A stretch of DNA of 32,000 bases from positions 60,001-92,000 of the forward strand of contig CAVRAI010000003.1 of NCBI GenBank assembly GCA_963718915.1, read 5' to 3'. Each line of letters starts with the position of its first letter. Positions within the stretch are counted from its first letter, which is position 1. Positions 9,246 through 22,888 of the stretch are shown piece after piece. The notes under the pieces were generated by a model, which saw nothing but the letters and a program-made list of their open reading frames with translations, had not been told where the DNA came from and searched no databases. A program made the translations under genes and the position numbers. The DNA is from an uncultured Chloroflexia bacterium. GTDB lineage: Bacteria > Chloroflexota > Ktedonobacteria > Ktedonobacterales > JADMIN01.

Positions 9246-10106
9246 ATGATTGGCGGTGTCAGCACCTTTACCATCGCCGCGAACACATTCTCCGGGCTGT
9301 TCTCGAACGCGATTGTCTCGCACGTGAGCAACAACTCGAACCTGACGATTGTCTCGAACACGGTGACGCAGGATATCGGTGATATTCAGTACGCCGCGGG
9401 CTGGGTCTACGGCGGATCAGATAACGCCACCTTTGATCTTGACAAGCTGACCGGAACCAACAGCATCAGCGGCAATACGATCACGTTCTCCGGCAGCAAC
9501 GCCTACCCGAGCGCTTCCGTCGAGGCTATCCGCCTGCGCTCGGGAGCAACCGGCACATTCAGCATCAACAGCAACACGTTTGATGGTGGCGGTGTGGGCG
9601 GTCCCGATACCACCGCACTGATGCTCGATAGTGGCGTCGCGCTTGGCGCGAACTCGGTCAACGGCAACCTCTTCCGCCGCTTTACCAACGGCGTGAACGA
9701 CTCCACCGCCGCGACCTATACCTTCGGCGTCAACAACTGCATCACGGGCAATAGCTCGTACGGCTTCTCCGCCAGCGGCGGCGCGGTCAACGCGCAGCAT
9801 AACTGGTGGGGTTCGGCCAACGGCCCCAGCCTGACCGGCCCCGGCACCACCATCGGCTATGGCAACCCGGTCACAGCCGCCGTGGACGCTTCGAGCTTCC
9901 TGACGTCCACACCAAATTCGGCCTGTGGCGGGCCAGTGGCGTCGAACGTGCAGAGCAGTGTGAATCCGCTGCCGCTCGGTGTTGCCTTCAACCTGACGGC
10001 GACGCTGGACACGACGACCACCAGCAACTCGCCCGTTCATATGGGCTACTACACGCTGGACGGCGGCTCCCCAACATACGATGACCACCACCAGCGGTAC
10101 CTATGA
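9246..10106 (+). CDS. Surface protein fragment 2 of 3: beta-helix repeats continuing into a beta-sandwich region
   Basis: The frame is open from 9156. ...SANNNISGDFGIRMIGGVSTFTIAANTFSGLFSNAIVSHVSNNSNLTIVSNTV continues the repeat register of fragment 1. It contains NAQHNWWGSANGP, typical of the end of such beta-helix modules. Confidence 0.7.
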   Translation: MIGGVSTFTIAANTFSGLFSNAIVSHVSNNSNLTIVSNTVTQDIGDIQYAAGWVYGGSDNATFDLDKLTGTNSISGNTITFSGSNAYPSASVEAIRLRSGATGTFSINSNTFDGGGVGGPDTTALMLDSGVALGANSVNGNLFRRFTNGVNDSTAATYTFGVNNCITGNSSYGFSASGGAVNAQHNWWGSANGPSLTGPGTTIGYGNPVTAAVDASSFLTSTPNSACGGPVASNVQSSVNPLPLGVAFNLTATLDTTTTSNSPVHMGYYTLDGGSPTYDDHHQRYL

Positions 10107-11568
10107 CAGCAGCAATTCGGTGGATGTCACCGCGTCACTGGCGGCCTTCAACTCCGTTGGCAGCCATACACTGTGCGTCTACGGCGTGGATGTCTACATC
10201 CAGACAGGCGACCCCGTCTGCATCACGCTCGACGTGACCACCGCCGACACGACCACGACCGTCACCAGCAGCGACAATCCCTCGCTGGCCGGGCATAGCG
10301 TGACCTTCACGATCACGGTGGCAGGCACGGCGGGCACGCCAACTGGCACGGTCACACTCAAAGATGGCTCGAATACGCTCGCGGGTCCGCTGGCGCTCGA
10401 TGGCTCCGGCCAGGCGACCTACACGACCTCCGCGCTGGCGGTGGGCACTCATCTGATTACCGCCGAATACCCCGGCGATAGCAGCGGCTCCCCCATCTTC
10501 GCGGCGTCAACCTCGTCCACGCTCAATCAGGTGGTCAACCTGGTCAGCACGACGACGACGGTGACCACATCGCCCAATCCGTCGGTCAGCGGCCAGACAG
10601 TGACGTTCTCTGTGACGGTCAACGCCGCCGATAGCTCGACGCCGACTGGCACCGTGGTGATCAAAGATGGCGTGAACGTGCTCGGCGCGGTTACCCTGAG
10701 CGGTGGCACGGGAACCTTCAGCAGCTCGTCGCTCAGCGTCGGCACGCATAACATCACTGCCGCGTACGGCGGCGACAGCACACACGATCTGTCGAGCGGC
10801 GCGACGACCCAGACGGTGAACGCGACACCCGCGGTGCCAACCGGCGCGAAGAACGCCTACATCCGCATCGTGCAGGCGAGTGAAGAGTATACGACCAGCG
10901 ATATTGGCATCGATGGCAACATCACCTTCCCGAATGTGGCGGCCTGCACGGCCCAGGCGTACTATCCCATCGCGGCGGGCAACCACACCTTCACGGTGAA
11001 CAATCCCAGCGGTGGCTCGACCGTCATCACCCAGGCCGTCAGCCTGACCGCGGGCCAGTACTACACGATTGCGGTGGTGGGCAGCACTGTCCACTCTGTG
11101 ACTCCGGCGCTGTGGGTCTTCCAGGATGACAACAGTGTCACGCCCAATCACGCCAAGGTGCGCGTCTACCATCTCTCCGACACGTTGGGGCCGGTGCAGG
11201 TGAATCAGGGGAGCAATGTCATCGCGGCGAGCCTGACCTTCACCAACGCAACGGGCTACAACAGCTATAGCCCCGGCTCGGTGGCATACAGCTTCCAGCC
11301 GACCAGTGGCCCGGCGATCAACGATACGCTCAATGTCGCGGCGAATCAGGTGTACAGCGTCTTCCTGATGTGCAACGGACAGGTGACGAACACTGCGGCG
11401 ACAGGCATACCGACTGGATTGCCACAGACTGGCTACGGGCAACAGCCCTGGCTGAACGCGCAGATCATCAGAGTCCTGCTGCTTGTGGGCACGGTTCTGC
11501 TGGTGATCGGTCTCGGCGGCCTCGGCTCCTACTTCATCATCGGACGCCGCCGCGAAGCGCTTCAGTAG
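10081..11568 (+). CDS. Surface protein fragment 3 of 3: tandem Ig-like domains, DUF4397-like domains, LPQTG cell-wall sorting signal
   Basis: Two near-repeats occur: TTTTVTSSDNPSLAGHSVTFTITV...GTVTLKDGSNTL...TH.ITA.Y.GDS and TTTTVTTSPNPSVSGQTVTFSVTV...GTVVIKDGVNVL. These are followed by YIRIVQAS.../AKVRVYHLSD... (DUF4397-like) and LPQTG plus a hydrophobic helix plus RRRE. Confidence 0.8.
   Translation: MTTTSGTYDSSNSVDVTASLAAFNSVGSHTLCVYGVDVYIQTGDPVCITLDVTTADTTTTVTSSDNPSLAGHSVTFTITVAGTAGTPTGTVTLKDGSNTLAGPLALDGSGQATYTTSALAVGTHLITAEYPGDSSGSPIFAASTSSTLNQVVNLVSTTTTVTTSPNPSVSGQTVTFSVTVNAADSSTPTGTVVIKDGVNVLGAVTLSGGTGTFSSSSLSVGTHNITAAYGGDSTHDLSSGATTQTVNATPAVPTGAKNAYIRIVQASEEYTTSDIGIDGNITFPNVAACTAQAYYPIAAGNHTFTVNNPSGGSTVITQAVSLTAGQYYTIAVVGSTVHSVTPALWVFQDDNSVTPNHAKVRVYHLSDTLGPVQVNQGSNVIAASLTFTNATGYNSYSPGSVAYSFQPTSGPAINDTLNVAANQVYSVFLMCNGQVTNTAATGIPTGLPQTGYGQQPWLNAQIIRVLLLVGTVLLVIGLGGLGSYFIIGRRREALQ
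11419..11568 (+). other. C-terminal sortase sorting signal (LPQTG, TM helix, basic tail)
   Basis: ttg cca cag act ggc at 11419-11433 encodes LPQTG. It is followed by IIRVLLLVGTVLLVIGLGGLGSYFII and GRRRE before the stop at 11566-11568. Confidence 0.85.
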
Positions 11569-11651
11569 CGGACATCGCGCACGGCGAGCCACTAGCGGGC
11601 GGGAGTTGGCAGAGACGCCAGCTTCCGCCCTATTCTTCCCTGGCAAGGGCA

Positions 11652-11760
11652 GCTATACCAATTTCCACTGGGTTGTTGGTGTTTTGCGAGCGCTGGCCGT
11701 AGCGTTGACGCTACGGCGAATTTCCTGGTCTATTCGCCGGGGCCTTCAGGCTCCGGTACC
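11652..11760. repeat. GC-rich palindromic intergenic repeat, copy 2 (core inverted relative to copy 1)
   Basis: gctataccaatttccactgggttgttggtgttttgcgagcg is direct with 2021-2062. The core ccgtagcgttgacgctacggcgaatttcctggtctattcgccggggccttcaggctccgg is the rc of copy 1 core. Confidence 0.55.
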
Positions 11761-11798
11761 CCTCCAGAAGTGAAGCAACGAAAAGGCGGTGAACGGAG

Positions 11799-12482
11799 AT
11801 GCGATCACGGCGAATGCTGGGAATAGTGGCGCTCATCGTGGCGCTGATTGGCGCCAGTGTCGTCTCCGTCGCGCTCTGGAATCTGCACGAGCAACAGGCC
11901 GCGACCGGTAGCGTCTCCGCCGCCAGAGCCACGCCGCGCCCGACCGCGACCACCTGGACCGATCAGCGCACGCAACAGCTCACCCAGTACGCGCCCACCC
12001 GCCTCACGATCCCCAGCATCCACCTCGACGTTGAGATCATCGGCGTCGGCGTGACCGCGGCGGGCGCGATGGATGCGCCCCGTTGCAATGCCAATAGCGA
12101 CCCTATCTGCAACGAGGTCTACTGGTTCAACGGCGGCTATCTGCCGGGCGAGACTGGCAACGCGGTCATCGCCGGGCATGTCAACCGTCCCGATCTCTCA
12201 CCCGCGCCATTCTGGAATCTCCATCTGGTGAAGAGAGGCGACAAGATTATCGTGCAACCGACCACTGGCCCGGCGCTGACCTTTGTCGTCACCTCCGTCA
12301 CCTGGATTTCAGCCTATGCGCATGGCAGCGGCGATACGACGCTTGGCGAGGTCTTCGGCCCATCCACCACCCGCAACCTCAACCTGCTGACGTGCATCGG
12401 CGACTGGGATGGCCATACCTTCGATCACCGTCTCTTTGTGCAGGCGCAGCTACAAGGGCCAAACCCCTTCCCGCAGGCGTAG
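11799..12482 (+). CDS. Sortase-family transpeptidase (class E/F-like)
   Basis: N-terminal anchor helix MLGIVALIVALIGASVVSVAL; TRLTIPSIHLDVEIIGVG; catalytic His in VIAGHVNR; Cys in LNLLTCIGDW; Arg in DHRLFVQA. It lies immediately downstream of the LPQTG protein. Confidence 0.85.
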   Translation: MRSRRMLGIVALIVALIGASVVSVALWNLHEQQAATGSVSAARATPRPTATTWTDQRTQQLTQYAPTRLTIPSIHLDVEIIGVGVTAAGAMDAPRCNANSDPICNEVYWFNGGYLPGETGNAVIAGHVNRPDLSPAPFWNLHLVKRGDKIIVQPTTGPALTFVVTSVTWISAYAHGSGDTTLGEVFGPSTTRNLNLLTCIGDWDGHTFDHRLFVQAQLQGPNPFPQA

Positions 12483-12557: not shown

Positions 12558-13094
12558 CTAACTCTCCTCTTCAGGGCCATCCGAATCATTAGCTGGGGCA
12601 TCATCGCCACGGAACGCATTGGCGGCGTCGCTGCCAAGCAGGTCTGCCCCGCTGAGCGAGCCACGTGGCGCGGGCCGGTCGGCGTTATCGGGGGCGCCGC
12701 TACCGGGCCAAAGGGGGCGCGAAGGGCCAGCCGGGCGCAGGGAGAACCCACCGCTGTCCTGTTCGTCTGATGGGACATCGTCGGTTCCATCGGGCGCCGG
12801 GTGTTGCGCCGAGGACTGCTGCGCCATATCACTGCTCTTTTGAACCGTATCCAGCGCCGTGAGTGTCCAGGCAATGCCGGTATCGGCGTTGCGCACCGTG
12901 CGCGAGAGCACGCCAAGCTCCTGCGCGAATGCCGCGACCGCGCGTTCCTGCTGATTCAGTTCCTCGCCAATTTGCAGCAGCAGATGCCACACCTCGACCA
13001 GTTCCACCGGGAGCTCGTCGCCCGTTGCAAGCGCCCGACCGTTCGCGCCGTTCGCGCCGTTCGCGCCATTGTGCTCCGCTCGGCCGACTCTCAT
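12558..13094 (-). CDS. C-terminal fragment of the disrupted membrane/coiled-coil protein (acidic, Pro/Asp-rich tail)
   Basis: The translation ...AEHNGANGANGANGRALATGDELPVELVEVWHLLLQIGEELNQQERAVAAFAQELGVLSRTV... has protein-like composition. Over the same DNA, the frame of the upstream ORF gives Arg/Gly junk (QWRERRERRERSGACNGRRAPGG...). Confidence 0.6.
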   Translation of the reverse strand: MRVGRAEHNGANGANGANGRALATGDELPVELVEVWHLLLQIGEELNQQERAVAAFAQELGVLSRTVRNADTGIAWTLTALDTVQKSSDMAQQSSAQHPAPDGTDDVPSDEQDSGGFSLRPAGPSRPLWPGSGAPDNADRPAPRGSLSGADLLGSDAANAFRGDDAPANDSDGPEEES

Positions 13095-14628
13095 CGGCGG
13101 ACTGGCTGGAGTCCATCGTGGGCAGGGGCATGGTCAGCGGCGCGATATTGGCCTCGGCGGGCGTGGCGGGCGCAAGCGTCTCAAATTCATGCGTCAGACC
13201 TGGCTCGACGCCGATGCCCAGCCCCTTGAGCGCGGGATCGCCGCCTTCGTGTGGGTCCGCCGTCTGGGTAATCTGTGGTGGCAGCACCACGGCCATCATG
13301 CGCCGGGCTTTCCCCAGCAACTCCAGCTCCTTCTGCAGCGACGCCTGCAACGACTCCGCGCGCGAGATCAGCGCGCCAGCCTGTCGCCGCGCCGCGACGA
13401 ACTCGTCCGATGCGTTGGTCAGACCATCGCGGCTATGGGCAACGCCCGCCGAGACACGCCCAAGCTGTTCTTGCAGGCGCGCAAGGCGGCGGTTGTAGTT
13501 GTCGGCGATGCGGGTGACCATCACCGAGACATTGTCGAACGGCGTATCGGTCTTGATGGTATGTACCGGAGTAATCGTATCGTTCACATTCAGCCGATTC
13601 AGGCCTTCGGTGATCGGCAACACCGCGCCGGTCATTCGGGCGTTTTCCTGCTGCACCTGCACCATCGAGTCGAAGGTATCGAGCAGCAGATTCAGGCTGT
13701 TCTCCACCACCTCCAGATCGCCGGGCGCCACTGGTACGCGCACGGTATAGTCGCCGGTAATCGCCTGCGCAATCGCCACCTGAATGCCGCCGATGCTGCC
13801 GTCGAGCTGCTCCTGACGCTCGCGCTCATGCGTCTTCATCTGCTGGAACTGCGCCTGCCGAAATTCGAGATCCTGCGCGTGCTGGGCAGTGACCGCCGTC
13901 GCGTAGATGAAATGCGAGAGCAGCCACGAGAGGATGGCCGTCAGCGCCAGCGGACTGAGGGTATAGAGCACGACCACATAGATCTGCGGCCCCGAGACAT
14001 CGTTGTTGAAGGCGATCAACAGCAGCATCGCCCCGGTCAGCGCAAGCGACGCCCCCACGACGATCACCGTCACCTCGGGAGTCAGCAGCAGGCCGGATTC
14101 AAGCATGACCGCCAGGAAGAAGAGCGCAATGTGGCCCGTGGCCTCGGCGCTGCCCGTAAACATGGCGGCGAAGACCTGAGCGGTGATGGCAAACCCGCCG
14201 CCGAAGACCAACATATAAGCGGCGAAGTGATCGTTCTTCAGCACATTGCCAACGACCAGCGCGGCCAGATAGACCGCCAGCGAGCCGAGCATAATCGGGA
14301 AGATAAGGCCGGGTTTATCATGGTAACCAAACGAGACGGCCGCTGTGATGAGCAGTTGCACGATGATGAGCGTATTGATGAGCTTATGGCGCTGCTCCTC
14401 GCGCTCGTCCATCACATTGATCGTCTGGTCGATCACCGCCGAGAGCGCCAGACGCGGCTCCGCTGGAACCGCTTCCTCGCGGATTGGCCGGGTCAATTTG
14501 GGGTTCTCGCGCGGCGTGAATGCGCCGTTCTCTGCTCCTTCAGCGGCCATCCGGTTATCTGGCGATGAATTACTCCGGCGCAACCATTGTGGTGTCCGGC
14601 GCGAAGGCCTGGGTTCCTTGTTCATCAT
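12829..14628 (-). CDS. Polytopic membrane protein with HAMP-like linker and coiled-coil region; the last ~85 codons of the ORF look like out-of-frame read-through
   Basis: Track ORF 12829..14676; the start is uncertain (ATG 14628 used). About six hydrophobic helices (LINTLIIVQLLITAAVSF ... LALTAILSWLLSHFIY). Then QVAIAQAITGDYTVRVPVAPGDLEVVENSLNLLLDTF (HAMP-like) and heptad-rich RLARLQEQLGRVS...LQASLQKELELLGKA. Sensible sequence ends near ...MDSSQSADES (about 13085). Confidence 0.65.
   Translation of the reverse strand: MMNKEPRPSRRTPQWLRRSNSSPDNRMAAEGAENGAFTPRENPKLTRPIREEAVPAEPRLALSAVIDQTINVMDEREEQRHKLINTLIIVQLLITAAVSFGYHDKPGLIFPIMLGSLAVYLAALVVGNVLKNDHFAAYMLVFGGGFAITAQVFAAMFTGSAEATGHIALFFLAVMLESGLLLTPEVTVIVVGASLALTGAMLLLIAFNNDVSGPQIYVVVLYTLSPLALTAILSWLLSHFIYATAVTAQHAQDLEFRQAQFQQMKTHERERQEQLDGSIGGIQVAIAQAITGDYTVRVPVAPGDLEVVENSLNLLLDTFDSMVQVQQENARMTGAVLPITEGLNRLNVNDTITPVHTIKTDTPFDNVSVMVTRIADNYNRRLARLQEQLGRVSAGVAHSRDGLTNASDEFVAARRQAGALISRAESLQASLQKELELLGKARRMMAVVLPPQITQTADPHEGGDPALKGLGIGVEPGLTHEFETLAPATPAEANIAPLTMPLPTMDSSQSADESRPSGAQWRERRERRERSGACNGRRAPGGTGRGVASAAANWRGTESAGTRGRGIRAGAWRALAHGAQRRYRHCLDTHGAGYGSKEQ
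13041..13067. repeat. Perfect 3 x 9-bp tandem repeat (gttcgcgcc) encoding (NGA)3 on the minus strand
   Basis: gttcgcgcc occurs at 13041-13049, 13050-13058 and 13059-13067. The repeat lies about 10-25 nt from the inferred frameshift site. Confidence 0.9.
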
Positions 14629-14969
14629 ATCGTATGCCGTTTCTATCGCGCTTCTCGCGCGCACGCGAAAGCACACCCACCCACCTCATCCCCAGAAGAC
14701 TGAGGTGGCGCATTGTCTGAAACAGTCTCTGGCGCGTCGATCTGGAAAGGCTATCGTATCGTCGCTAGCCTCTGCCATCCCACGCCTAAAAAAACCAGAC
14801 GGGCGGCATCCAGCCAGCAAGCGCCATCAGGCACTGTATTTTAGGCGAGCGCGCGGTATCTGGCAAGGGGCAATAGGGCAGAAGTCGTGCCAGCCCGCAT
14901 CGCGCCCACAACACAAGAAATAGCGCCGACTGGTACTTGTGTCAGGGGGTATCGCCCTGGCAGGGCGCC

Positions 14970-15005: not shown

Positions 15006-15053
15006 GGCGGATGAACCGAACGGTGTGTGCGGGTGGGCAGGGCGCGGTGGTTC

Positions 15054-15062
15054 TGTTATAAT
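15054..15062 (+). promoter_or_regulatory. Candidate extended -10 promoter (TGtTATAAT) for the nuo-like operon
   Basis: tgttataat at 15054-15062 is a perfect TATAAT with an upstream TG in GC-rich non-coding DNA, about 170 nt before the nuoB-like ATG (15232). Confidence 0.4.
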
Positions 15063-15231: not shown

Positions 15232-15831
15232 ATGAGTACAGATAATGCCAATCGCCCCGCGTCGGGCAGTGGTGTCCCGCGTGGTATCACCGTCCAGATG
15301 CTGGACCAGAGCACCAAACGGCGCACCGGCGAGTATGTTCCCGGCAGCCAGGAGGGGCAGGTGGCGCTGACCAGCGTCGCCGATATGCTCAAATGGGCGC
15401 AGAACTACGCGCGCAGTCGCTCGATCTGGCCGCTGGGCTACGGCCTGGCCTGCTGCGCCATCGAGATGATGGCCGCCGCGCAGAGCCACTACGACCTCTC
15501 GCGCTGGGGATCCGAGGTTTTCCGCTCCAGCCCGCGCCAGGCCGACCTGATGATCGTCGCGGGCACCGTCTGCATCAAGATGGGGCCGCGCCTCGTCCGC
15601 CTGTGGGAGCAGATGCCTGATCCCAAGTGGGTGCTCTCGCTCGGCCAGTGCGCCACGTCTGGCGGCGAGTTCTATGATAGCTATTACACTGTGCAGGGCG
15701 TGGATACGCTCGTGCCGGTCGATATCTACGTGCCAGGCTGCCCGCCCCGACCAGAGGCGCTGATCGAGGGCATTCTCAAGTTGCGCGAGAAGATTGAGAA
15801 GCAGGGTCTGAAGATTCGCGGCGAAGACTAA
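15232..15831 (+). CDS. nuoB: NADH:quinone oxidoreductase subunit B (NuoB/PSST, cluster N2 carrier)
   Basis: [20 protein letters not shown] (tandem Cys), [27 protein letters not shown] and [25 protein letters not shown] are all four N2-ligand contexts in canonical order. Confidence 0.9.
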
Positions 15832-15845
15832 ATAAGGAGCAAACG

Positions 15846-16532
15846 ATGCGCGGAATACTTCAGGGTCTGGGCCTGACCTTGAGCCACGTGACCCGGCCCA
15901 AGGTCACCCGGCTGTATCCCTACGAGAAGCGCAAGCTGCCGCCGCGCAGTCGCGGCCTGATCCAGCTGATCCAGGAGGATGGGCAGGCAACGCCGTTCAA
16001 TCTGAAGTGTGAGGCGTGCCTGCTCTGTGAGAAGGCCTGTCCGCCACGCGCCATCACCATCGAGGCGCGGCCCACGTTGCGCTTCCGCCGCCGACCCTAC
16101 TTCTCGCCGACATCGGTGGCCGGCTATTACACGCCGCGCATCTCCGAGTACGCTGTCAACTATCCTAACCGGCCGTTCTCGCCGCCCGTGCTGACGCCCG
16201 TCACCACCGAACTGGAGCAGCCAGCGGATCTTGCCAGGGCCGACGAAATTCTCGACCGCGCGCCCTTCGACGCCTGGGATCTGACGGCGCTGCTCGACGA
16301 GCTGATGGACGCCTATGACGGGATGCCGCAGGCTGTGGCGTGGCGTGTGGTGGAGCGACGCGGCGTCGATATGAGCGATATCTTCGGCATTGTGACCGCC
16401 AGCGAGCGCTTCAAGCCTGCCGCCGCCGCCACACCAGGTGTGCTACGCACCGACGGAGCCGAACGCGGCCCCTCGGCGGCGACGCGCGGCAAGTATGGCA
16501 GCATCAACCATCGGAGGGCGCAGCGTGCCTGA
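15846..16532 (+). CDS. NuoI N-terminal half (single CxxCxxCxxxCP motif) fused to a Cys-less region weakly resembling the NuoE N-terminus
   Basis: TRLYPYEKRKLPPRSRGLIQLIQEDG...KCEACLLCEKACPPRAITIEA parallels E. coli NuoI ...[49 protein letters not shown]. The second ferredoxin motif is absent. The later segment LTALLDELMDAYDGMPQAVAWRVVERRGVDMSDIFGIVTASERF is NuoE-like but lacks the 2Fe-2S cysteines. The tail is low complexity. Confidence 0.7.
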   Translation: MRGILQGLGLTLSHVTRPKVTRLYPYEKRKLPPRSRGLIQLIQEDGQATPFNLKCEACLLCEKACPPRAITIEARPTLRFRRRPYFSPTSVAGYYTPRISEYAVNYPNRPFSPPVLTPVTTELEQPADLARADEILDRAPFDAWDLTALLDELMDAYDGMPQAVAWRVVERRGVDMSDIFGIVTASERFKPAAAATPGVLRTDGAERGPSAATRGKYGSINHRRAQRA

Positions 16533-17838
16533 GACGCAATCGTATTTGCTGACAACATCCGGCCCGGCGCTGACGAGCTTTGACGCCTACGCGCAGCAGG
16601 GCGGATTCACCGGACTTCGCCAGGCGCTGACGAATATGACGCCAGCGCAGGTACTGGGCGAGTTGCGTACCGCTGGCCTGCGCGGACGCGGCGGCGCTGG
16701 CGTGCTGACGGCGGAGAAGCTCAAGCTGGTGGCTCAGGCGGTGGCCGACGAGAAATATCTTGTCTGCAACGCCTACGATGCCGATATGCGATCTGCGGCG
16801 GCGAGCAGCCTGCTGGAACGCAACCCCTTCCTCGTCATCGAGGGCGTCGCGCTGGCCGCCTATGCCATCGGCGCCACCGAGGCCTACCTCTACGTCCGCA
16901 GCAGCCGCACCGCCGCCGCCGAGAGTATTCGCGCGGCGCTCACCAGCGCCCAGGAGCGCAATGCGCTGGGGCGGGGCATCTTTGGCTCGCAGACCGACCT
17001 GAATATCACGCTGGTCGGGGTCGAGCGCGGCTTCATGGCAGGCGAGGAATCGTCCCTGCTCGAAATCATCAAGGGTCGCCCGATGAAGGCGCAGCAGCGT
17101 CCGCCGTATCCGACCGAGTACGGGTTGCAGGGCCAGCCCACCGTCGTGCAGAACGTCGAGACGCTGGCGAATCTGCCGGTGATTGTAGCGCGCGGCGGCG
17201 ACGCCTTCCGTAAGCTGGGCACCGAGGGCAGCCCTGGCACGAAGCTGCTGACGGTTATCTGGCCAGGCTCGCCACAGGGGGTCATCGTCGAAGCTCCCTT
17301 TGGCACGAAGATTCGCGATGTGCTGGCGAAGGCTGGCGCGCCGGTCAATGAGAGCACGACACGCGCGGTGGTCGTCGGCGGCGGCGAGGGTGGCGCATTG
17401 CCGCTCAGCCTGCTGGATACGCCCTACGACTATGAGCCACTGGAAGAGGTCGGCGTCATCGTCGGCTCTAGCATCATCGAGTTGCTCCCCGCGGACACCT
17501 GCATGGTGCGCTGGGCCACTGAGCGCTCGAACACGCTGGCCCGCGAGTCCTGTGGCAAGTGCGTGCCGTGTCGGGTGGGCGTCAAGCGCATCGGCGGCAC
17601 GCTCGAAGGCATCATCAGCAGCCTGGGCACGCAAGACGATCTGGCGCTGCTGACCGAGTTCGCGCAGTATGTGCCCGATGGCTCGCTCTGTGGTTTCGGC
17701 GTCAACGCCGTTAAGCCGCTGACGACGGCGATGAAATACTTCGCCGACGACTTCACCGCTCATCTCGATGGCACATGCCCGACTGGCGTCTGCGAGCCGG
17801 TGCGCGCGCATCGCTACGCGACCAAGCATGTGCTTTAG
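16525..17838 (+). CDS. NuoF-like (51-kDa family) subunit with retained N3 [4Fe-4S] motif but divergent FMN/NADH-binding motifs
   Basis: Track ORF 16438..17838. I prefer the GTG at 16525 (GGAGGG at 16513-18, overlapping the upstream stop as GTGCCTGA); the alternative is ATG 16495. Motifs: GLRGRGGAG, YLVCNA, IEGVALAAYAIGA, AGEESSLLEII, PPYPTEYGL.GQPTVVQNVETLANLP, GTKLLTV, ESCGKCVPCRVG...SLCGFG. Confidence 0.85.
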   Translation: MPETQSYLLTTSGPALTSFDAYAQQGGFTGLRQALTNMTPAQVLGELRTAGLRGRGGAGVLTAEKLKLVAQAVADEKYLVCNAYDADMRSAAASSLLERNPFLVIEGVALAAYAIGATEAYLYVRSSRTAAAESIRAALTSAQERNALGRGIFGSQTDLNITLVGVERGFMAGEESSLLEIIKGRPMKAQQRPPYPTEYGLQGQPTVVQNVETLANLPVIVARGGDAFRKLGTEGSPGTKLLTVIWPGSPQGVIVEAPFGTKIRDVLAKAGAPVNESTTRAVVVGGGEGGALPLSLLDTPYDYEPLEEVGVIVGSSIIELLPADTCMVRWATERSNTLARESCGKCVPCRVGVKRIGGTLEGIISSLGTQDDLALLTEFAQYVPDGSLCGFGVNAVKPLTTAMKYFADDFTAHLDGTCPTGVCEPVRAHRYATKHVL

Positions 17839-17870
17839 GCATCTTGAGGCAATCTGGGAAGAGGCATTCT

Positions 17871-20276
17871 ATGGCAGTCACGATTCGTGAAGATTCCGCC
17901 GCAACGCCAGGCGGGCAGCCGTTCGAACGGAACGACCATGGCCAGCCATCCTTCACGCTGACCATCGATGGCCGCCCGATGCGCGCCTACGAGGGGCAGA
18001 CTATTCTCAGCGTTGCGGTGGATAACGGGATTCTCGATATTCCGAATCTCTGTAACGATGAGAAACTGGAACCCACCTCGGCCTGCCGCATGTGTCTGGT
18101 GGAGATCGAAGGAGCGGAACGCCCGCTGCCCTCGTGCAATACACCCGCCGCGCCGGGGATGGTGGTGCGCACGAAGTCGGACCGGCTACAGAACATCCGC
18201 CGCACCAACCTGGAGATGATGCTCTCCGACCACAACGCCTATTGCCAGCCACCGTGTCAGGTCGGCTGCCCGACGCATATCGATATTCCGGGCTACCTGG
18301 AACTGATCGCGCAGGGGCAGAATCGCGAGGCGGCGCGGCTGGTGAAGGAAGTGTTGCCCTTCCCCTACATCCTCGGCCTGACCTGTCCGGCGCCCTGCCA
18401 GGATGTCTGCCGCCGCGGGCTGGTGGACGAGGAGATCGCCATCTGCCGCATGCATGGCTATGCCGCCGAACAGTGCATGGACGACCCGCCAACGCCGTGG
18501 GTACAGGAAGCCACCACCGGCAAGAAGGTCGCCGTCGTCGGCGCGGGGCCGTGTGGGCTGACCGCCGCCTACTATCTGGCGCTCAAGGGCCACTACTGCA
18601 AGGTCTATGACATGATGCCCCAGTCGGGCGGCATGCTGCGCTATGGCATCCCGGAGTATCGGCTGGAGAAGGATCAGATTGATCGTGAGTTCGAGGGCGT
18701 CTGGAAGCTCGGCGTCGACGTGCAGTACAACGTCAAGCTGGGCGAAGACTTCACGATTGACGATCTCTTCAACGAGGGCTTCGACGCGGTCTACCTCGCC
18801 ATCGGCGCGTGGACCTCGAACGAGTTGGGCCTCGACGGCCAGGATTTGCCCGGCGTCATCAACGCCATCGCGTACTTGCAGGATAAGACGCGCGGCCTGA
18901 CGCAGCCGGTGAACGACACCAAAGAGGTGATCGTGCTGGGCGGCGGCTTCACGACATTCGACTGCACACGCACCTCGCTCCGCCTGGGTGCGAAGGTGCA
19001 CACGGTCTATCGCCGCGGACGTGGTGAGATGACGGCCACCTTCGAGGAGGTCGAGGATGGCGAGAGCGAGGGCACTGACCTGCAACTCTTCGCGTCGGCG
19101 ACGAAGGTGATCCACGACGGCACGAAGGTCACTGGCCTGGAGTTCCAGCGGATGCAACTGGGCGAGCCAGACGCCACGGGCCGCCGCCGCCCGGTGCCGA
19201 TCCCCGGCAGCGAATACCAGATTAGCTGCGATACGGTGATCCCAGCCTACGGGCAGAAGCCCGATAAAGCGGTGCTGCCGGAGAGTAGTGGCGTCATCTG
19301 GACGAAACATCAGACCATCGAGACCGACCCGTACAACTTCATGACGGCGCGCAAGGGCGTCTTCGCGGGCGGCGACGCAGTGATCGGCGCCTCGACGATT
19401 ATCGAGTGCGTGGCGCAGGGCAAGCTGGCCTCCCGTTCGATTGACGCCTATCTGCGTAGCGAGGATATGGCGGTCGTCTCGAAGACCATCGAGGCGGAGG
19501 AGCGCAAGCCGGACCTCTTCGACATCGTGCCCTACAAGCCGGTCGAGCCGAAGGTCAAGATGCCGATGCTGCCCTATGACGAGCGGGATCGCAACTTCCG
19601 GCTGATCGAGATGGGTTACACCCAGGAGCAGGCCGAGCGCGAGGCGGGCCGCTGCTTGCAGTGCGCGTGCCCGGCGGCGGGGCAGTGCGATCTGCAAAAA
19701 TACAGCATCGAGTACAACCTCGAAAACAACCGCTTCCATGATGGCGAGCCAAGCGACTACCACGACTACGAGTTCGATCTGTCGCATAGCTTCATCCTGC
19801 GCGACCCGAACAAGTGCATCAACTGCACCCAGTGCGTGCGCGTCTGCCACGACGTGATCGGCCCGAACTGCTATGGCATGTTTGGCCACGGCTTCGATAC
19901 GATTGTTTCGACGCCGTTCAACGCCTCGCTGCACGAGACGGACTGTGTTTCGTGTGGCGCGTGCGTGCAGGTCTGCCCGACCGGCTCGCTGATGATGGCG
20001 GAGCGCGAGCTGGTGCGCTGGGACTTCGCGCTGGATCGCTGCATCTTCTGCGGCGACTGCGTGGAGGTCTGCCCGCACGGCGCGCTCGGCGAGACGCCCA
20101 ACTTCGAGCTATCGTTCTACAACCGCTTTGGCCGCGATATCTCGATGCCGATGCAGGATGTGGCGCGCGCGCCGTCGTTCCTGGTGCGCCAGCCCGTGCC
20201 GCGCAACGAGGACGAGCGCCCCAATGGACTGAACCCGCTGGTGCGTCCGCTGCCCGCGCGCCAGATTCGCGAATAG
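17871..20276 (+). CDS. Multidomain Fe-S flavoprotein: NuoG/HydA-type N-terminal [2Fe-2S] domain, GltD-type (glutamate synthase small-subunit-like) FAD/NAD(P)H module, NuoG-type 2x[4Fe-4S] region, NuoI C-terminal half
   Basis: Track ORF 17775..20276; the ATG at 17871 follows GGGAAGAGG. Domains in order:
- [2Fe-2S]: LTIDGRPMRAYEGQTILSVA...NLCNDEKLEPTSACRMCLVEIEG...SCNT
- GltD-like: HNAYCQPPCQVGCPTHIDIPGYLELI...LTCPAPCQDVC, VAVVGAGPCGLTAAYYL, GGMLRYGIPEYRLEKD, VFAGGDAV
- 4Fe-4S region: RCLQCACPAAGQCDLQ, CINCTQCVRVC, CVSCGACVQVCPTGSL
- tail: WDFALDRCIFCGDCVEVCPHGALGETPNFELSFY, resembling NuoI [34 protein letters not shown]. Confidence 0.85.
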   Translation: MAVTIREDSAATPGGQPFERNDHGQPSFTLTIDGRPMRAYEGQTILSVAVDNGILDIPNLCNDEKLEPTSACRMCLVEIEGAERPLPSCNTPAAPGMVVRTKSDRLQNIRRTNLEMMLSDHNAYCQPPCQVGCPTHIDIPGYLELIAQGQNREAARLVKEVLPFPYILGLTCPAPCQDVCRRGLVDEEIAICRMHGYAAEQCMDDPPTPWVQEATTGKKVAVVGAGPCGLTAAYYLALKGHYCKVYDMMPQSGGMLRYGIPEYRLEKDQIDREFEGVWKLGVDVQYNVKLGEDFTIDDLFNEGFDAVYLAIGAWTSNELGLDGQDLPGVINAIAYLQDKTRGLTQPVNDTKEVIVLGGGFTTFDCTRTSLRLGAKVHTVYRRGRGEMTATFEEVEDGESEGTDLQLFASATKVIHDGTKVTGLEFQRMQLGEPDATGRRRPVPIPGSEYQISCDTVIPAYGQKPDKAVLPESSGVIWTKHQTIETDPYNFMTARKGVFAGGDAVIGASTIIECVAQGKLASRSIDAYLRSEDMAVVSKTIEAEERKPDLFDIVPYKPVEPKVKMPMLPYDERDRNFRLIEMGYTQEQAEREAGRCLQCACPAAGQCDLQKYSIEYNLENNRFHDGEPSDYHDYEFDLSHSFILRDPNKCINCTQCVRVCHDVIGPNCYGMFGHGFDTIVSTPFNASLHETDCVSCGACVQVCPTGSLMMAERELVRWDFALDRCIFCGDCVEVCPHGALGETPNFELSFYNRFGRDISMPMQDVARAPSFLVRQPVPRNEDERPNGLNPLVRPLPARQIRE

Positions 20277-20307: not shown

Positions 20308-20340
20308 GGGTGATCGGTGGAATGCCGGTCACCTTTTTTG
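20308..20340 (+). terminator. Rho-independent terminator of the nuo-like operon (also left copy of the islet-flanking repeat)
   Basis: gtgatcgg (20310-17) - tggaatg - ccggtcac (20325-32) forms 8 bp with one G.U pair. It is followed by TTTTTT (20334-39), about 30 nt after the stop at 20274-76. Confidence 0.7.
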
Positions 20341-20369: not shown

Positions 20370-20418
20370 TCGCCATGTATACTGATAGCAGGCAAACGTT
20401 CGCGAGATGGAGGGATAC

Positions 20419-21237
20419 ATGAGTCCGTTCGAGGCGATCCGGCACAGCGATGAGGATGGGCAGGAGTTTTGGTCAGCGCGCGAGCTGGCAGTTATTCTTG
20501 ACTACTCCAACTGGCGCAACTTCGTGAAGGTTATAGGCAAGGCGCGTGAAGCCTGCGAGAACAGTGGTTATGCAGCTTCAGACCATTTCGTCGAAGCCGA
20601 CCAAATGGTCACTCTAGGCAGTGGGGCACAACGTCAGGTTGCAGATTTCTCCTTGTCGCGCTACGCCTGTTATCTCATCGTGCAGAATGCCGACCCCGAA
20701 AAACCCATCGTCGCGCTGGGGCAGACCTACTTTGCCGCGCAGACCCGTCAGGCAGAACTGGCCGAAGACGCCGAGCGTGTCTACCTGCGCGATCAGATGA
20801 GCGAGCACAACAAGACGCTGGCCGCCTCAGCATACGAAGCCGGAGTGGTTACTCGAAGCGACTTCGCCATCTTCACCGACCACGGCTATATGGGCCTCTA
20901 CAGTGGTGAGCGAGCACGCGACATCGCCGCACGCAAGGGATTGAAGCGCAGGCAGCCTATCCTCGACTGGATGAACACTGAGGAACTGGCTGATAATCTC
21001 TTCCGGCAGGTGCAGGCCGAGGCACGCATCCGTCGTGAAGGAGCCGCCAGCAAAGAGGAGGCCAACCGCATCCACCATCAGGTCGGACAGCAGGTGCGTC
21101 GCTTTATCATCGAGGAGTTAGAGGGAACGCCGCCGGAATTTCTACCGACGCCGAGCGAGAGCGTGCAGACGGTGCGCGCCCGCGAACAGCAGCGGATCCA
21201 GGCGGAACGACAGCCGTCACTCTTCCCCCACGGATGA
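20419..21237 (+). CDS. dinD: DNA-damage-inducible protein D homologue (DinD; BRO-N-like N-terminal domain)
   Basis: Track ORF 20407..21237; the ATG at 20419 follows GGAGGG (20409-14). SPFEAIRHSDEDGQEFWSARELAVILDYSNWRNFVKVIGKAREACENSGYAASDHFVE...LGSGAQRQVADFSLSRYACYLIVQNADPEKP...GQTYFAAQTR is co-linear with E. coli DinD as I recall it (QPFEEIKH...GQEFWSARELAPLLEY.DWRNF...). Confidence 0.85.
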   Translation: MSPFEAIRHSDEDGQEFWSARELAVILDYSNWRNFVKVIGKAREACENSGYAASDHFVEADQMVTLGSGAQRQVADFSLSRYACYLIVQNADPEKPIVALGQTYFAAQTRQAELAEDAERVYLRDQMSEHNKTLAASAYEAGVVTRSDFAIFTDHGYMGLYSGERARDIAARKGLKRRQPILDWMNTEELADNLFRQVQAEARIRREGAASKEEANRIHHQVGQQVRRFIIEELEGTPPEFLPTPSESVQTVRAREQQRIQAERQPSLFPHG

Positions 21238-21319: not shown

Positions 21320-21946
21320 ATGACAACGAAACCCGAAGAGCTATCTAACGGGGATCGCGCGCGTCATCTCATTCAGGAGGTGGGCGTGCTGCGTCCGCGC
21401 GACCTGGCCGCGCATGGCATCCCTCCACGCTATGCGTCTCGCCTCGCGCGGGAAGGGCTGCTAGAGCGGGCGGATCGCGGCCTCTATGCTGTGACAGATG
21501 GTGCTATCCATGAGCATCAGACGCTGGTTGAGGTGAGCCGACGGATGCCTCACGCCGTGATCTGCTTGCTTTCTGCACTACGCTTCCATGACCTGACAAC
21601 TCAAGCGCCATTCGAGGTGTGGGTAATGGTAGATGTTCACGCCTATGTGCCGCGCACGACACAACTACCAGTGCGTGTCGTTTATGCCTCGGGCAAAGCG
21701 CTTACCGAAGGTGTCGAGCAACATCTCATTATGGGCGTGCTAGTGCGTGTGACCACTCCGGCAAAGACAGTCGTGGACTGCTTCAAATACCGCTCGAAAG
21801 TTGGGCTTGATGTAGCCCTGGAGGCGCTACGTGAGACCTGGCGCGAGCGACGCGCGACGATGGACGAGTTGTGGCGCTACGCCCAAGTCTGTCGTGTCGC
21901 ACAGGTTATGCGCCCGTACCTCGAATCGCTGGAGACGCTCTCATGA
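21320..21946 (+). CDS. abiEi: Type IV toxin-antitoxin system AbiEi-family antitoxin (wHTH transcriptional autoregulator)
   Basis: 208 aa. ARHLIQEVGVLRPRDLAAHGIPPRYASRLAREGLLERADRGLYAV is the AbiEi_4-type N-terminal wHTH. The stop overlaps the next start as ATGA (21943-46). Confidence 0.8.
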   Translation: MTTKPEELSNGDRARHLIQEVGVLRPRDLAAHGIPPRYASRLAREGLLERADRGLYAVTDGAIHEHQTLVEVSRRMPHAVICLLSALRFHDLTTQAPFEVWVMVDVHAYVPRTTQLPVRVVYASGKALTEGVEQHLIMGVLVRVTTPAKTVVDCFKYRSKVGLDVALEALRETWRERRATMDELWRYAQVCRVAQVMRPYLESLETLS

Positions 21947-22869
21947 GCGATTCCACTGGTGGCAAAAAACCTCGTGCAATACCAACACCCAGGGATCTGC
22001 CAGCATCCATTCGTGGCAGGCTGAAGAACCAGGCGCGGGCGCGTGGTGAGGACATGCTCTATGTACTATCACGCTATGCGCTCGAGCGATTGCTCTTTCG
22101 CCTCGGACGCTCCTCATATGCTGACCAGTTCGTGGTAAAGGGCGCGCTTCTTTTCTCGCTCTGGAACGAGCACTCCCACCGCCCAACACGTGACCTGGAT
22201 CTGCTCGGCTTTGGTTCTGAGGACGCCAACCGCATCCAGCTGATCTTCACCGATCTGTGCACGCTGCCCATCAGTGAGGCAGATGGTCTGATATTCCAGC
22301 AGGAATCCATACAGGTGACGCCTATTCGCGAGACGCAGGAGTATGGAGGACTGCGCGTAGCAATGTGGGCATTGCTTGGGCAAACTCGCATTCGCGTGCA
22401 GGTGGACATCGGCTTTGGTGATGTCACCACACGTGCGCGTCTATCCGCCTGAGACAGTTGTCGCGGAGAAGTACGAGGCGCTCGTGCGGTTGGGGGTAAT
22501 CAACAGCCGGGTGAAAGACTTTTATGATCTGTGGACATTGGCCAGCGAACGCGCCTTCACTGGCACTATCCTCGCGACGGCGATCAGTGCGACGTTCACC
22601 CGACGTGATACGCCACTCCCGACGGCTACGCCACTCGCGCTCACTGACGACTTCATCGCTGACCCGGCAAAGCTACAACTCTGGCGCGCTTTCGTGAGCC
22701 GCAACAAACTCGATCCTGCTGCGCCTTCTCTCAACTGCTCCGCGCTTTCCTCTTGCCGCCCACACAATCACGGCTCTCTGGAGAACCATTCGATCAGCAA
22801 TGGGCGCCAGGTGGTCCATGGCAACGACCGCCCCTGGCTGCAAGTGATTCCTCCGCCGATGCAAAGTAG
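21943..22869 (+). pseudogene. abiEii: AbiEii/AbiGii-family nucleotidyltransferase toxin, disrupted (internal deletion/frameshift near 22425 and 1-nt deletion near 22725)
   Basis: Frame 1 (21943-22452): MSDSTGG...LERLLFRLGRS.YADQFVVKGALLFSLW...RPTRDLDLLGFG...QVDIGFGDVTT, then junk and a stop. Frame 2 (about 22425-22725): HVRVYPPETVVAEKYEALVRLGVINSRVKDFYDLW...LWRAFVSRNKLDPAAP. Frame 1 again (about 22726-22869): FSQLLRAFLLPPTQSRLSGEPFDQQWAPGGPWQ...*. About 15-20 residues normally between GFGD and the (R)xYPxET segment are missing. Confidence 0.75.
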
Positions 22870-22888
22870 GCAGACTCATATGTGACGA

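Follow-up and report, generated by a model that had tools for sequence, protein, structure and literature searches.

Probable peripheral arm of a variant complex I, with a GltD flavin module and a NuoI split over two proteins, encoded by a four-gene cluster of soil Chloroflexota

The DNA analysed here (the window, 32,000 nucleotides in full) spans positions 60,001 to 92,000 of contig CAVRAI010000003.1 (assembly GCA_963718915.1), from an uncultured member of the Ktedonobacteria (Chloroflexota). It contains four closely spaced genes on the + strand, referred to as g1 to g4, whose products resemble the soluble subunits of respiratory complex I and probably form part of the peripheral arm of a variant of that enzyme. 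The first, g1 (15232-15831), encodes a complex-I-type NuoB of 199 residues. It is followed by g2 (15846-16532), in which the N-terminal half of NuoI is joined with a truncated NuoE, by g3 (16525-17838), a protein of 437 residues resembling NuoF and the core of BfuB, and by g4 (17871-20276), an 801-residue fusion protein that has a NuoG/HoxU-type N-terminus, then a GltD module as an insertion, and ends in the C-terminal half of NuoI. The assignments of g1, g3 and g4 come from Pfam, those of g1 and g4 also from NCBIfam. An earlier note, made from the letters alone, had placed four open reading frames (ORFs) at these coordinates. All four are present, with the one correction that g3 starts with GTG and not ATG; this start at 16525 stands after GGAGGG and overlaps the stop of g2 by 8 nucleotides. 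Purine-rich stretches resembling ribosome-binding sites are clear before g2 and g3 and weaker before g1 and g4. The promoter and terminator which the note had put on either side of the genes were also recovered, both as pattern matches only: a promoter-like TGGGCA, 17-nucleotide spacer and TATAAT with an upstream TG (extended -10; 15034..15062, +; consensus scan), and a terminator-like hairpin, GGTGGAATGCCGGTCACC then TTTTTT (20316..20339, +).

Relatives were collected in two ways. A genome-contig search with g4 supplied the Ktedonobacteria loci, of which 78 were fetched, and an exhaustive search with g2 supplied more distant relatives. Pfam and NCBIfam profile scans bear out every domain that the earlier note had called. 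For g1, Oxidored_q6 is matched at an expect value (E) of 1e-28 (Pfam) and the NCBIfam NuoB subfamily at 229 bits (cutoff 116). The four ligands of the N2 [4Fe-4S] cluster are in place, as had been claimed (C74, C75, C140 and C170, tandem CC included). The best solved relative is Nqo6 of Thermus thermophilus (E 3e-57), with Mbh/FHL proteins at ~1e-30 and hydrogenase small subunits at ~1e-7; by these matches g1 is assigned as a complex-I-type NuoB and not as a hydrogenase small subunit. A [NiFe] hydrogenase of the Hox, Mbh or Ech kind was rejected on the last of these comparisons and on the content of the window, in which no Complex1_49kDa or NiFe large-subunit gene was found. Residues 34-199 of g1 are 84-90% identical in most Ktedonobacteria loci, the first ~33 residues being a variable N-terminal extension, and g1 is 57-68% identical to NuoB genes placed in nuoABCDH contexts. 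One locus carries a second, solo nuoB (L045:16815-17519, -; 234 residues, 83% identical to the NuoB of the operon in L045). It is flanked by a UbiE/MenG-type methyltransferase and a polyprenyl synthetase, i.e. by genes of the quinone-biosynthesis type.

The similarity of g2 to NuoI is confined to its first ~80 residues, with a single CxxCxxCxxxCP motif (profile scan). Residues 1-83 (15846..16094, +) form the N-half of NuoI/TYKY and hold the first of its motifs (C55, C58, C61, C65). This half matches bovine TYKY 30-105 at E 3e-12 and positions 1-71 of the NCBIfam NuoI profile. It is also the most invariant part of g2 family-wide, T21, Y24, P25, R36, G37 and the four cysteines being invariant. 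A linker (residues 84-127) leads to the N-terminal helical part of NuoE/HydC/StnA, recognised by family profile matches at residues 128-191 (16227..16418, +), and a poorly conserved tail (192-228) completes the protein. In a family profile built from g2 and its relatives (A1), positions 4-80 match NuoI, and positions 119-237 match HydC, NfnC, StnA and 9bov_C (E 1e-25 to 1e-26). The thioredoxin-like 2Fe-2S (N1a) domain and its cluster cysteines are lacking in g2, whilst longer, more distant relatives keep all four.

The remaining half of NuoI is found at the end of g4, where a splice alignment to TYKY places the C-half (LVRWDFALDRCIFCGDCVEVCPHGALGETPNFELSF) and then a conserved tail, PLVRPLPARQIRE, at residues 714-801 (20010..20273, +). 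Both are kept in all g4 orthologues and paralogues. Splicing g2(1-83) to g4(714-801) in silico gives a gapless alignment with bovine TYKY 30-141 (93 bits, E 1e-25), compared with 50 bits for g2 alone, and the split that the earlier note had described thus holds. NuoI is broken in the loop that separates its two cluster motifs; both CxxCxxCxxxCP motifs are present with their NuoI-specific flanks, one on g2 and the other on g4. In a 2x[4Fe-4S] ferredoxin fold every cluster draws cysteines from both motifs. It follows that g2 and g4 would have to associate to bind either NuoI cluster.

Two further observations concern g2. A 607-residue protein, P0190, from a 48-kb ENA contig, has the NuoI N-half, the NuoE-like helical part and NuoF fused in one polypeptide; since one member of its cluster is annotated as a Thermoleophilia bacterium, the family extends to the Actinomycetota. 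In the 90% database cluster of g2, which has 163 members, g2 proteins under the names 'hypothetical protein' or 'ferredoxin' stand together with 199-residue members named NuoB, a mixture that looks like an artefact of clustering or gene calling.

The largest protein, g4, opens with a [2Fe-2S] ferredoxin domain of the N1b/C4 type (residues 28-103; 17952..18179, +), which matches Fer2_4 at E 4e-21 and aligns to the N-termini of NuoG, HoxU and HydA. A GltD/NfnB-type module is inserted at residues 121-594 (18231..19652, +) and is followed by the NuoG/HoxU-type [4Fe-4S] region (residues 595-713; 19653..20009, +), with the motifs CLQCACPAAGQC, CINCTQCVRVC and CVSCGACVQVCP. The Pfam spans are Fer2_4 28-103, Fer4_20 124-203, Pyr_redox_2 218-516, Fer4_Nqo3 642-707 and Fer4_7 692-738, in keeping with the GltD-type module and NuoG-type 2Fe-2S and 4Fe-4S region of the earlier note. 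The borders of the insertion were taken from a 265-residue HoxU-like protein of a relative (L083), which aligns to g4 28-126 and 600-748. Within the module are HxxxCxxxCxxxCP, a 2x[4Fe-4S] region, a site for flavin adenine dinucleotide (FAD), GAGPCG (224-229), and an NAD(P)H site, GGGFTTFD (357-364) then YRRGRGEM (380-387); its YRR motif is common to NADPH-using NfnA, NfnI-L and GltD. The NuoG-type [4Fe-4S] region is conserved in all relatives and scores 172 bits against the HoxU model of NCBIfam. The best NCBIfam model for g4 as a whole is a putative glutamate synthase small subunit, at 579 bits and under its cutoff of 916. A stand-alone GltD paired with GltB was rejected, GltD being an internal domain of g4 and the Pfam scan of the flanking genes having found no GltB domain.

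A closer counterpart of g4 is found in the soluble Stn and NfnABC enzymes. Residues 30-730 form a single colinear alignment with 9bov_A (E 7e-181), StnC (8oh5_C, 8e-162) and NfnA (9n5u_A, 9e-147), and g4 carries both the HxxxCxxxCxxxCP and the CxxCxC junction motifs noted for StnC by Kremp et al. The earlier note had held that the architecture does not match Nfn layouts, a view not borne out by this colinearity (E 1e-147 to 1e-181) or by g3, which is closest to the B subunits of the same enzymes. However, g4 stops at residue 801 with RWDFALDRCIFCGDCVEVCPHGALGETPNFELSF, where StnC (1172 residues) runs on into an FdhF-like domain. The molybdopterin-like C-terminal domain of NuoG is likewise missing, and the NuoI C-half stands in its place.

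Additional copies of g4 occur in several Ktedonobacteria. In Dictyobacter aurantiacus (L032:10001-17660) three tandem copies lie immediately behind the operon; copies b and c are near-identical and read TTYYRTRADM at the nucleotide site, against YRRGRTEM in the operon copy, and all three have the NuoI C-half and tail. Solo paralogues with no g1-g3 upstream were seen in L063, L066, L067 and L039 (~10001-12400 each) and in L053 (8634-11039). Their nucleotide site is YYR in L063 and L066 and YRR in L039 and L053. The neighbours of the copy in L063 are unrelated (an M4 peptidase, an AidB-like protein and a TPR regulator). A tblastn search of plasmids with g4 returned only Stn-like and GltD-like genes of unrelated bacteria.

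The NuoF-like character of g3 stands as previously described, with the Pfam domains Complex1_51K and NADH_4Fe-4S and all four N3 cysteines (C343, C346, C349, C389); Pfam found no ferredoxin-type domain. Its score against the NuoF family model (nuoF_fam) is 302 bits, the cutoff being 559, and alignments to solved structures place it nearer to the Bfu-type B-subunit core (Stn/NfnABC) than to NuoF of complex I. It covers only the core of these 584-630-residue B subunits, e.g. residues 118-526 of 9bov_B. The pocket motifs are GRGGAGVLTAEKL, CNAYDADMRS and RGFMAGEESSL, where alignments to PDB entries show GRGGAGFPT..KW, CNADEGDPGAF and GAGAFVCGEETAL in solved relatives. From the Thermus structures, we take these altered motifs to line the site for flavin mononucleotide (FMN) and NADH. 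In most of the more distant Ktedonobacteria loci g3 is 51-67% identical, and it is the least conserved of the four proteins. NAYDAD is nevertheless kept across Ktedonobacteria and Limnocylindria, and because of this conservation the change would be a selected one and not decay. In two outgroup lineages the NuoF-like protein has only three of the four N3 cysteines (L079:3766-5091, CGKTIPC; L081:2811-4217, CGRCIPG), a hint that the NuoF branch may be dispensable for electron flow in this family.

The four-gene order, which the earlier note had suggested looking for in other genomes, is kept in 63 of the 78 Ktedonobacteria loci, including those of Ktedonobacter, Dictyobacter, Tengunoibacter, Thermosporothrix and Thermogemmatispora. 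Beyond this class the setting of the genes is different. On seven related types of contig, genes like g2, g3 and g4 (the triad) directly adjoin other nuo genes. In L094 and L095 the order is nuoA-B-C-D-H-[I'E']-F-[G'::GltD::I''], in L079 nuoD-H-triad-J-K, in L081 nuoD-H-triad, and in L084 nuoA-B-C-D-H-[I'E]-..., the bracketed gene being g2-like. L083 has nuoH-[I'E]-[E::F::GltD]-[HoxU-like::I'']-J-K-L-M-N, and two loci of the Limnocylindria (L089, L090) have nuoB-D-triad and then a Methyltransf_28 gene. No separate nuoI, nuoE or nuoG was found in any of these nuo-linked clusters, and their g4 homologues have all retained YRR as well as the third cluster motif and a tail of the NuoI type. On this gene content the triad takes the place of NuoE, F, G and I inside nuo operons, and the Ktedonobacteria cluster (B plus triad) is the most reduced layout of the family. 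Moreover, in a metagenome-assembled genome (MAG) of the Limnocylindria, GCA_035651155.1, nuoB-D-triad lies on one contig, whilst contig 25 carries nuoA-C-H-J-K-L-M-N and no other nuo gene; together the two contigs contain each core function exactly once. The reading of the earlier note, a soluble enzyme ending at N2 without a quinone module, finds no support in these comparisons, as the triad of the relatives sits with NuoD, NuoH and, in part of the clusters, antiporter-like subunits, and the clusters of the MAG complement each other.

Two details of these relatives may be recorded. The Methyltransf_28 (PF02636) gene behind nuoB-D-triad (L089:15583-16638, L090:15535-16638) belongs to what we take to be the family of NDUFAF7, a complex I assembly factor that methylates the NuoD homologue in mitochondria. 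In the 49% GC lineage of L083, GltD forms the C-terminus of a NuoE::NuoF protein of 1048 residues (L083:2076-5222) and is not in the NuoG-like protein, so that the placement of GltD varies within the family; the NuoG/HoxU-like protein of this lineage, only 265 residues long, still has the NuoI C-half at its end.

Taken together, these data make it probable that the products of g1-g4 form the section of the peripheral arm that takes up electrons and passes them on in a variant NAD(P)H:menaquinone complex I of soil Chloroflexota, an assignment drawn from sequence. The remaining genes in Ktedonobacteria (nuoA, C, D, H and J-N) are most likely located elsewhere in the genome. The NADH module most likely derives not from canonical NuoEFG but from an Stn/NfnABC-type (Bfu-family) module without the bifurcation-specific domains. 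We infer assembly with a membrane arm in the Ktedonobacteria, specificity for NADPH and the direction of electron flow.

A path for the electrons can be proposed from two parts. In Stn, the route that leads from FAD by way of the GltD clusters to those of NuoG type has been solved and is functional; a further cluster branch, in the FdhF-like domain, is described as a non-functional remnant (PMC10482914). In g4 a NuoI half replaces the FdhF-like domain, and the functional StnC chain would for this reason be extended through it. In complex I, NuoI leads on to N2 and quinone. Hydride from NADPH would accordingly pass to the FAD of the GltD domain of g4, and the electrons would then use the two [4Fe-4S] clusters of GltD to reach those of NuoG type in the same protein. 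From here they would reach N6a/N6b, in a ferredoxin fold formed only when the NuoI N-half of g2 meets the C-half of g4, and then N2 in NuoB (g1). Menaquinone would be reduced at a NuoD/NuoH site encoded elsewhere and the membrane arm would pump protons. The NuoF-like g3, held via the NuoE-like helical domain of g2, could be a second entry, for NADH, or a partly degenerate structural subunit. Since no solved relative has a flavin pocket like that of g3, the model with two entries is uncertain. The reverse run, in which NADPH is made from quinol, would be equally possible on sequence grounds.

A more speculative extension, which we consider possible but hold only tentatively, is a proton-pumping complex I that uses NADPH, either as an NADPH:menaquinone pump or as an NADP+ reductase driven by the proton motive force and fed by quinol from oxidation of atmospheric H2 and CO, with the split NuoI serving as a plug. 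Paralogues of g4 with the same NuoI C-half, and with YRR or YYR at the nucleotide site, might then dock on one g1/g2 core, and exchange of g4 might retune which pyridine nucleotide is coupled to the respiratory chain. If the flavin site of g3 were also active, the enzyme could be an energy-linked NADH/NADPH junction as well. The extra g4 copies and the solo nuoB fit either exchangeable input subunits or a soluble family.

Several findings weigh against the proposed variant complex I in the Ktedonobacteria, and some of them favour a free-standing soluble NAD(P)H oxidoreductase, or a non-bifurcating NADH/NADPH transhydrogenase, whose wire ends at N2 with a soluble acceptor and no membrane arm. 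The flavin pocket of g3 is unlike that of any solved relative, and the complementarity of the MAG contigs holds only if the binning is correct. As the earlier note had stated for NuoC, D, H and antiporter-like subunits, tblastn with NuoA, C, D, H, J, K, L, M and N found no match in the window, and nuoA, C, D, H and J-N are not within 10 kb of the cluster in the 78 fetched loci either. The cluster thus has no nuoD, unlike that of the Limnocylindria, and among its conserved neighbours in the 63 loci, clustering of flanking genes revealed no nuo gene and no obvious partner. When NuoD of L086 was the query, the 120 matches listed were all Limnocylindria-type proteins. With a NuoH query from L081, 98 of the 120 matches listed were one Limnocylindria-type cluster, and the others listed fell into several small lineages without a Ktedonobacteria label. 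The linkage of the FMN-type site of g3 to the FAD site of g4 by clusters is, moreover, the arrangement of the soluble Stn enzyme. The solo and tandem copies of g4 and the one locus with an extra solo nuoB would also suit a soluble, diversifying family, and it is on their account that a soluble enzyme retains some weight, although we regard it as unlikely. The triad is inside or beside nuo genes in every non-Ktedonobacterial relative examined. In solved complex I, NuoB and the N-terminal segment of NuoI contact NuoD and NuoH; g1 and this segment of g2 are among the best-conserved parts of the cluster, and none of the solved structures searched has an N2-type NuoB working without a NuoD-type partner. 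Genome surveys also report a nuo complex in Ktedonobacteria (PMC13374853; PMC6776052); the supplementary tables of PMC13374853, PMC4453560 and PMC6776052 gave no usable per-genome nuo content for this class.

The likeness to Stn and NfnABC raises a further alternative, a bifurcating transhydrogenase in which NADPH oxidation is coupled to reduction of NAD+ and a low-potential acceptor, the NuoI and NuoB clusters taking over the ferredoxin-reducing branch. The best solved relatives of g3, g4 and the C-terminal domain of g2 are indeed the B, A/C and C/A subunits of NfnABC and StnABC. However, g3 is the BfuB core only, without the N- and C-terminal cluster domains that define bifurcating members (PMC9304861), the 2Fe-2S domain of StnA/BfuC is absent from g2, g4 does not have the FdhF-like domain on which the Stn tetramer is built, and the hosts are aerobes. 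With the bifurcation-specific domains missing, such an enzyme is very improbable. Less credible still is an ordinary complex I whose genes are simply separated from the remainder of the operon. There are precedents for dispersed nuo genes, such as NUO-2 of Nitrospina gracilis (PMC3578206), and g1 taken alone is an ordinary NuoB. The domain architecture already contradicts this reading: g4 has a full GltD FAD/NAD(P)H module and no NuoG molybdopterin-like domain, NuoI is split and fused to other subunits, the NuoE cluster domain is lost and the pocket motifs of NuoF are unlike those of all solved NuoF proteins. The earlier note had named as the case that would overturn it that the four genes are dislocated parts of ordinary complex I, the others lying elsewhere; a location elsewhere is indeed most likely, but the complex I concerned is far from ordinary.

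Against this background, the variant complex I proposed here can be set beside systems already described. With complex I (NuoA-N/Nqo1-14) it shares the tandem-cysteine N2 site of NuoB, the eight cysteines for the cluster pair of NuoI, a NuoF-type subunit with N3 and the NuoG-type 2Fe-2S and 4Fe-4S clusters, as well as, in relatives, a place in nuo operons with NuoD, NuoH and antiporter-like subunits. It differs in that NuoI comes in two halves on two proteins, the NuoE 2Fe-2S (N1a) domain and the molybdopterin-like C-terminal domain of NuoG are absent, a GltD FAD/NADPH module is inserted, the flavin-pocket motifs of NuoF are altered and the genes are dispersed. The closest characterised enzymes are Stn and NfnABC (Nfn-Bfu; solved as 8oh5, 9bov and 9n5u). 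They agree with g4 30-730 in the order 2Fe-2S, GltD (FAD/NADPH) and NuoG-like clusters, junction motifs included, with g3 in the core of the B subunit, and with the C-terminal domain of g2 in StnA/NfnC. In contrast to them, the cluster described here is without the FdhF-like domain, the additional cluster domains of the B subunit and the 2Fe-2S of the small subunit (g2), so that it has no bifurcation core; in their stead it has NuoI halves and NuoB, and the genes are nuo-linked in aerobes whereas Stn and NfnABC are soluble enzymes of anaerobes.

The closest concept is the predicted, uncharacterised 'Nuo-Bfu' of Schut et al. 2022 (PMC9304861), e.g. of Geobacter, in which BfuABC replaces NuoEFG in a 14-gene operon. 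Both would be complex-I-like quinone reductases with a Bfu-type module instead of NuoEFG. However, Nuo-Bfu keeps a full bifurcating BfuB with ferredoxin-type domains and an intact NuoI, and GltD is unmentioned in the parts of that account consulted. In the Mbx-like complexes that occur in Thermotoga and certain proteobacteria, too, a membrane module like that of complex I is joined by an NAD(P)-binding flavoprotein of the GltD type (Degli Esposti 2015, PMC4758237). In that ferredoxin:NADP+ system, which has neither NuoF nor NuoG, GltD reportedly takes the place of NuoI, whereas here it lies inside the NuoG-like protein and NuoI is kept as two pieces. The HoxEFU diaphorase of bidirectional [NiFe] hydrogenases is likewise built on a NuoE/F/G-N-type module, and g4 matches the HoxU model; the present cluster departs from it in having no hydrogenase large subunit, a g1 of NuoB and not HoxY type, and the GltD insertion. 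A literature search of incomplete coverage found no description of a complex I with GltD or with a split NuoI.

Complex I is by textbook NADH-specific. If the proposal is correct, a widespread complex I of soil bacteria with a built-in NADPH-binding flavin module would change the view of how NADPH and the respiratory chain are linked in Ktedonobacteria and Limnocylindria, two groups that are plentiful in soils and caves and sustained in part by trace gases. In evolutionary terms, the Stn/Nfn-type module of the relatives interrupts nuoI at gene level: the N-half is fused to the first gene of the module and the C-half to the last. This would be a natural and testable case of an electron-input module grafted onto an 11-subunit core. 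A two-cluster ferredoxin fold made from two different polypeptides would also be unusual and of interest for protein design. The names currently given to g2 are 'hypothetical protein' or 'ferredoxin', and these clusters have no gene called as nuoI or nuoG; as the labels of g2 and g4 miss these subunits, pathway surveys may miscount complex I in these phyla. How far the system interests specialists in complex I and flavin enzymes depends on the membrane partner in Ktedonobacteria and the nucleotide actually used.

Inspection by eye of the flanking-gene clusters in the 63 Ktedonobacteria loci suggested an isopropylmalate-dehydrogenase-like gene, a CheA-like kinase and a GH1 glycosidase. Further flanking homologues are a BON-domain protein and a Cys/Met enzyme of the pyridoxal phosphate (PLP) type, as scanned in L045. 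The genes around the cluster in the window are unrelated to it (Pfam scan) and encode a sortase, an immunoglobulin-like surface protein, a BRO-N protein, AbiEi/AbiEii and an ATP-binding cassette (ABC) ATPase. Upstream and divergent from the operon is a 615-residue ORF (12829-14676, -) with no Pfam match and several hydrophobic stretches in its N-terminal half; it keeps this position only in the closest relatives (9 loci including L001). Downstream, a BRO-N domain gene (20407-21237) lies between the terminator of the operon and an AbiEi antitoxin gene followed by an AbiEii toxin gene (21320-22885). The toxin gene is apparently broken: ORF 21871-22452 covers only positions 1-112 of the 238 in the AbiEii profile and is overlapped by ORF 22376-22885 in another frame.

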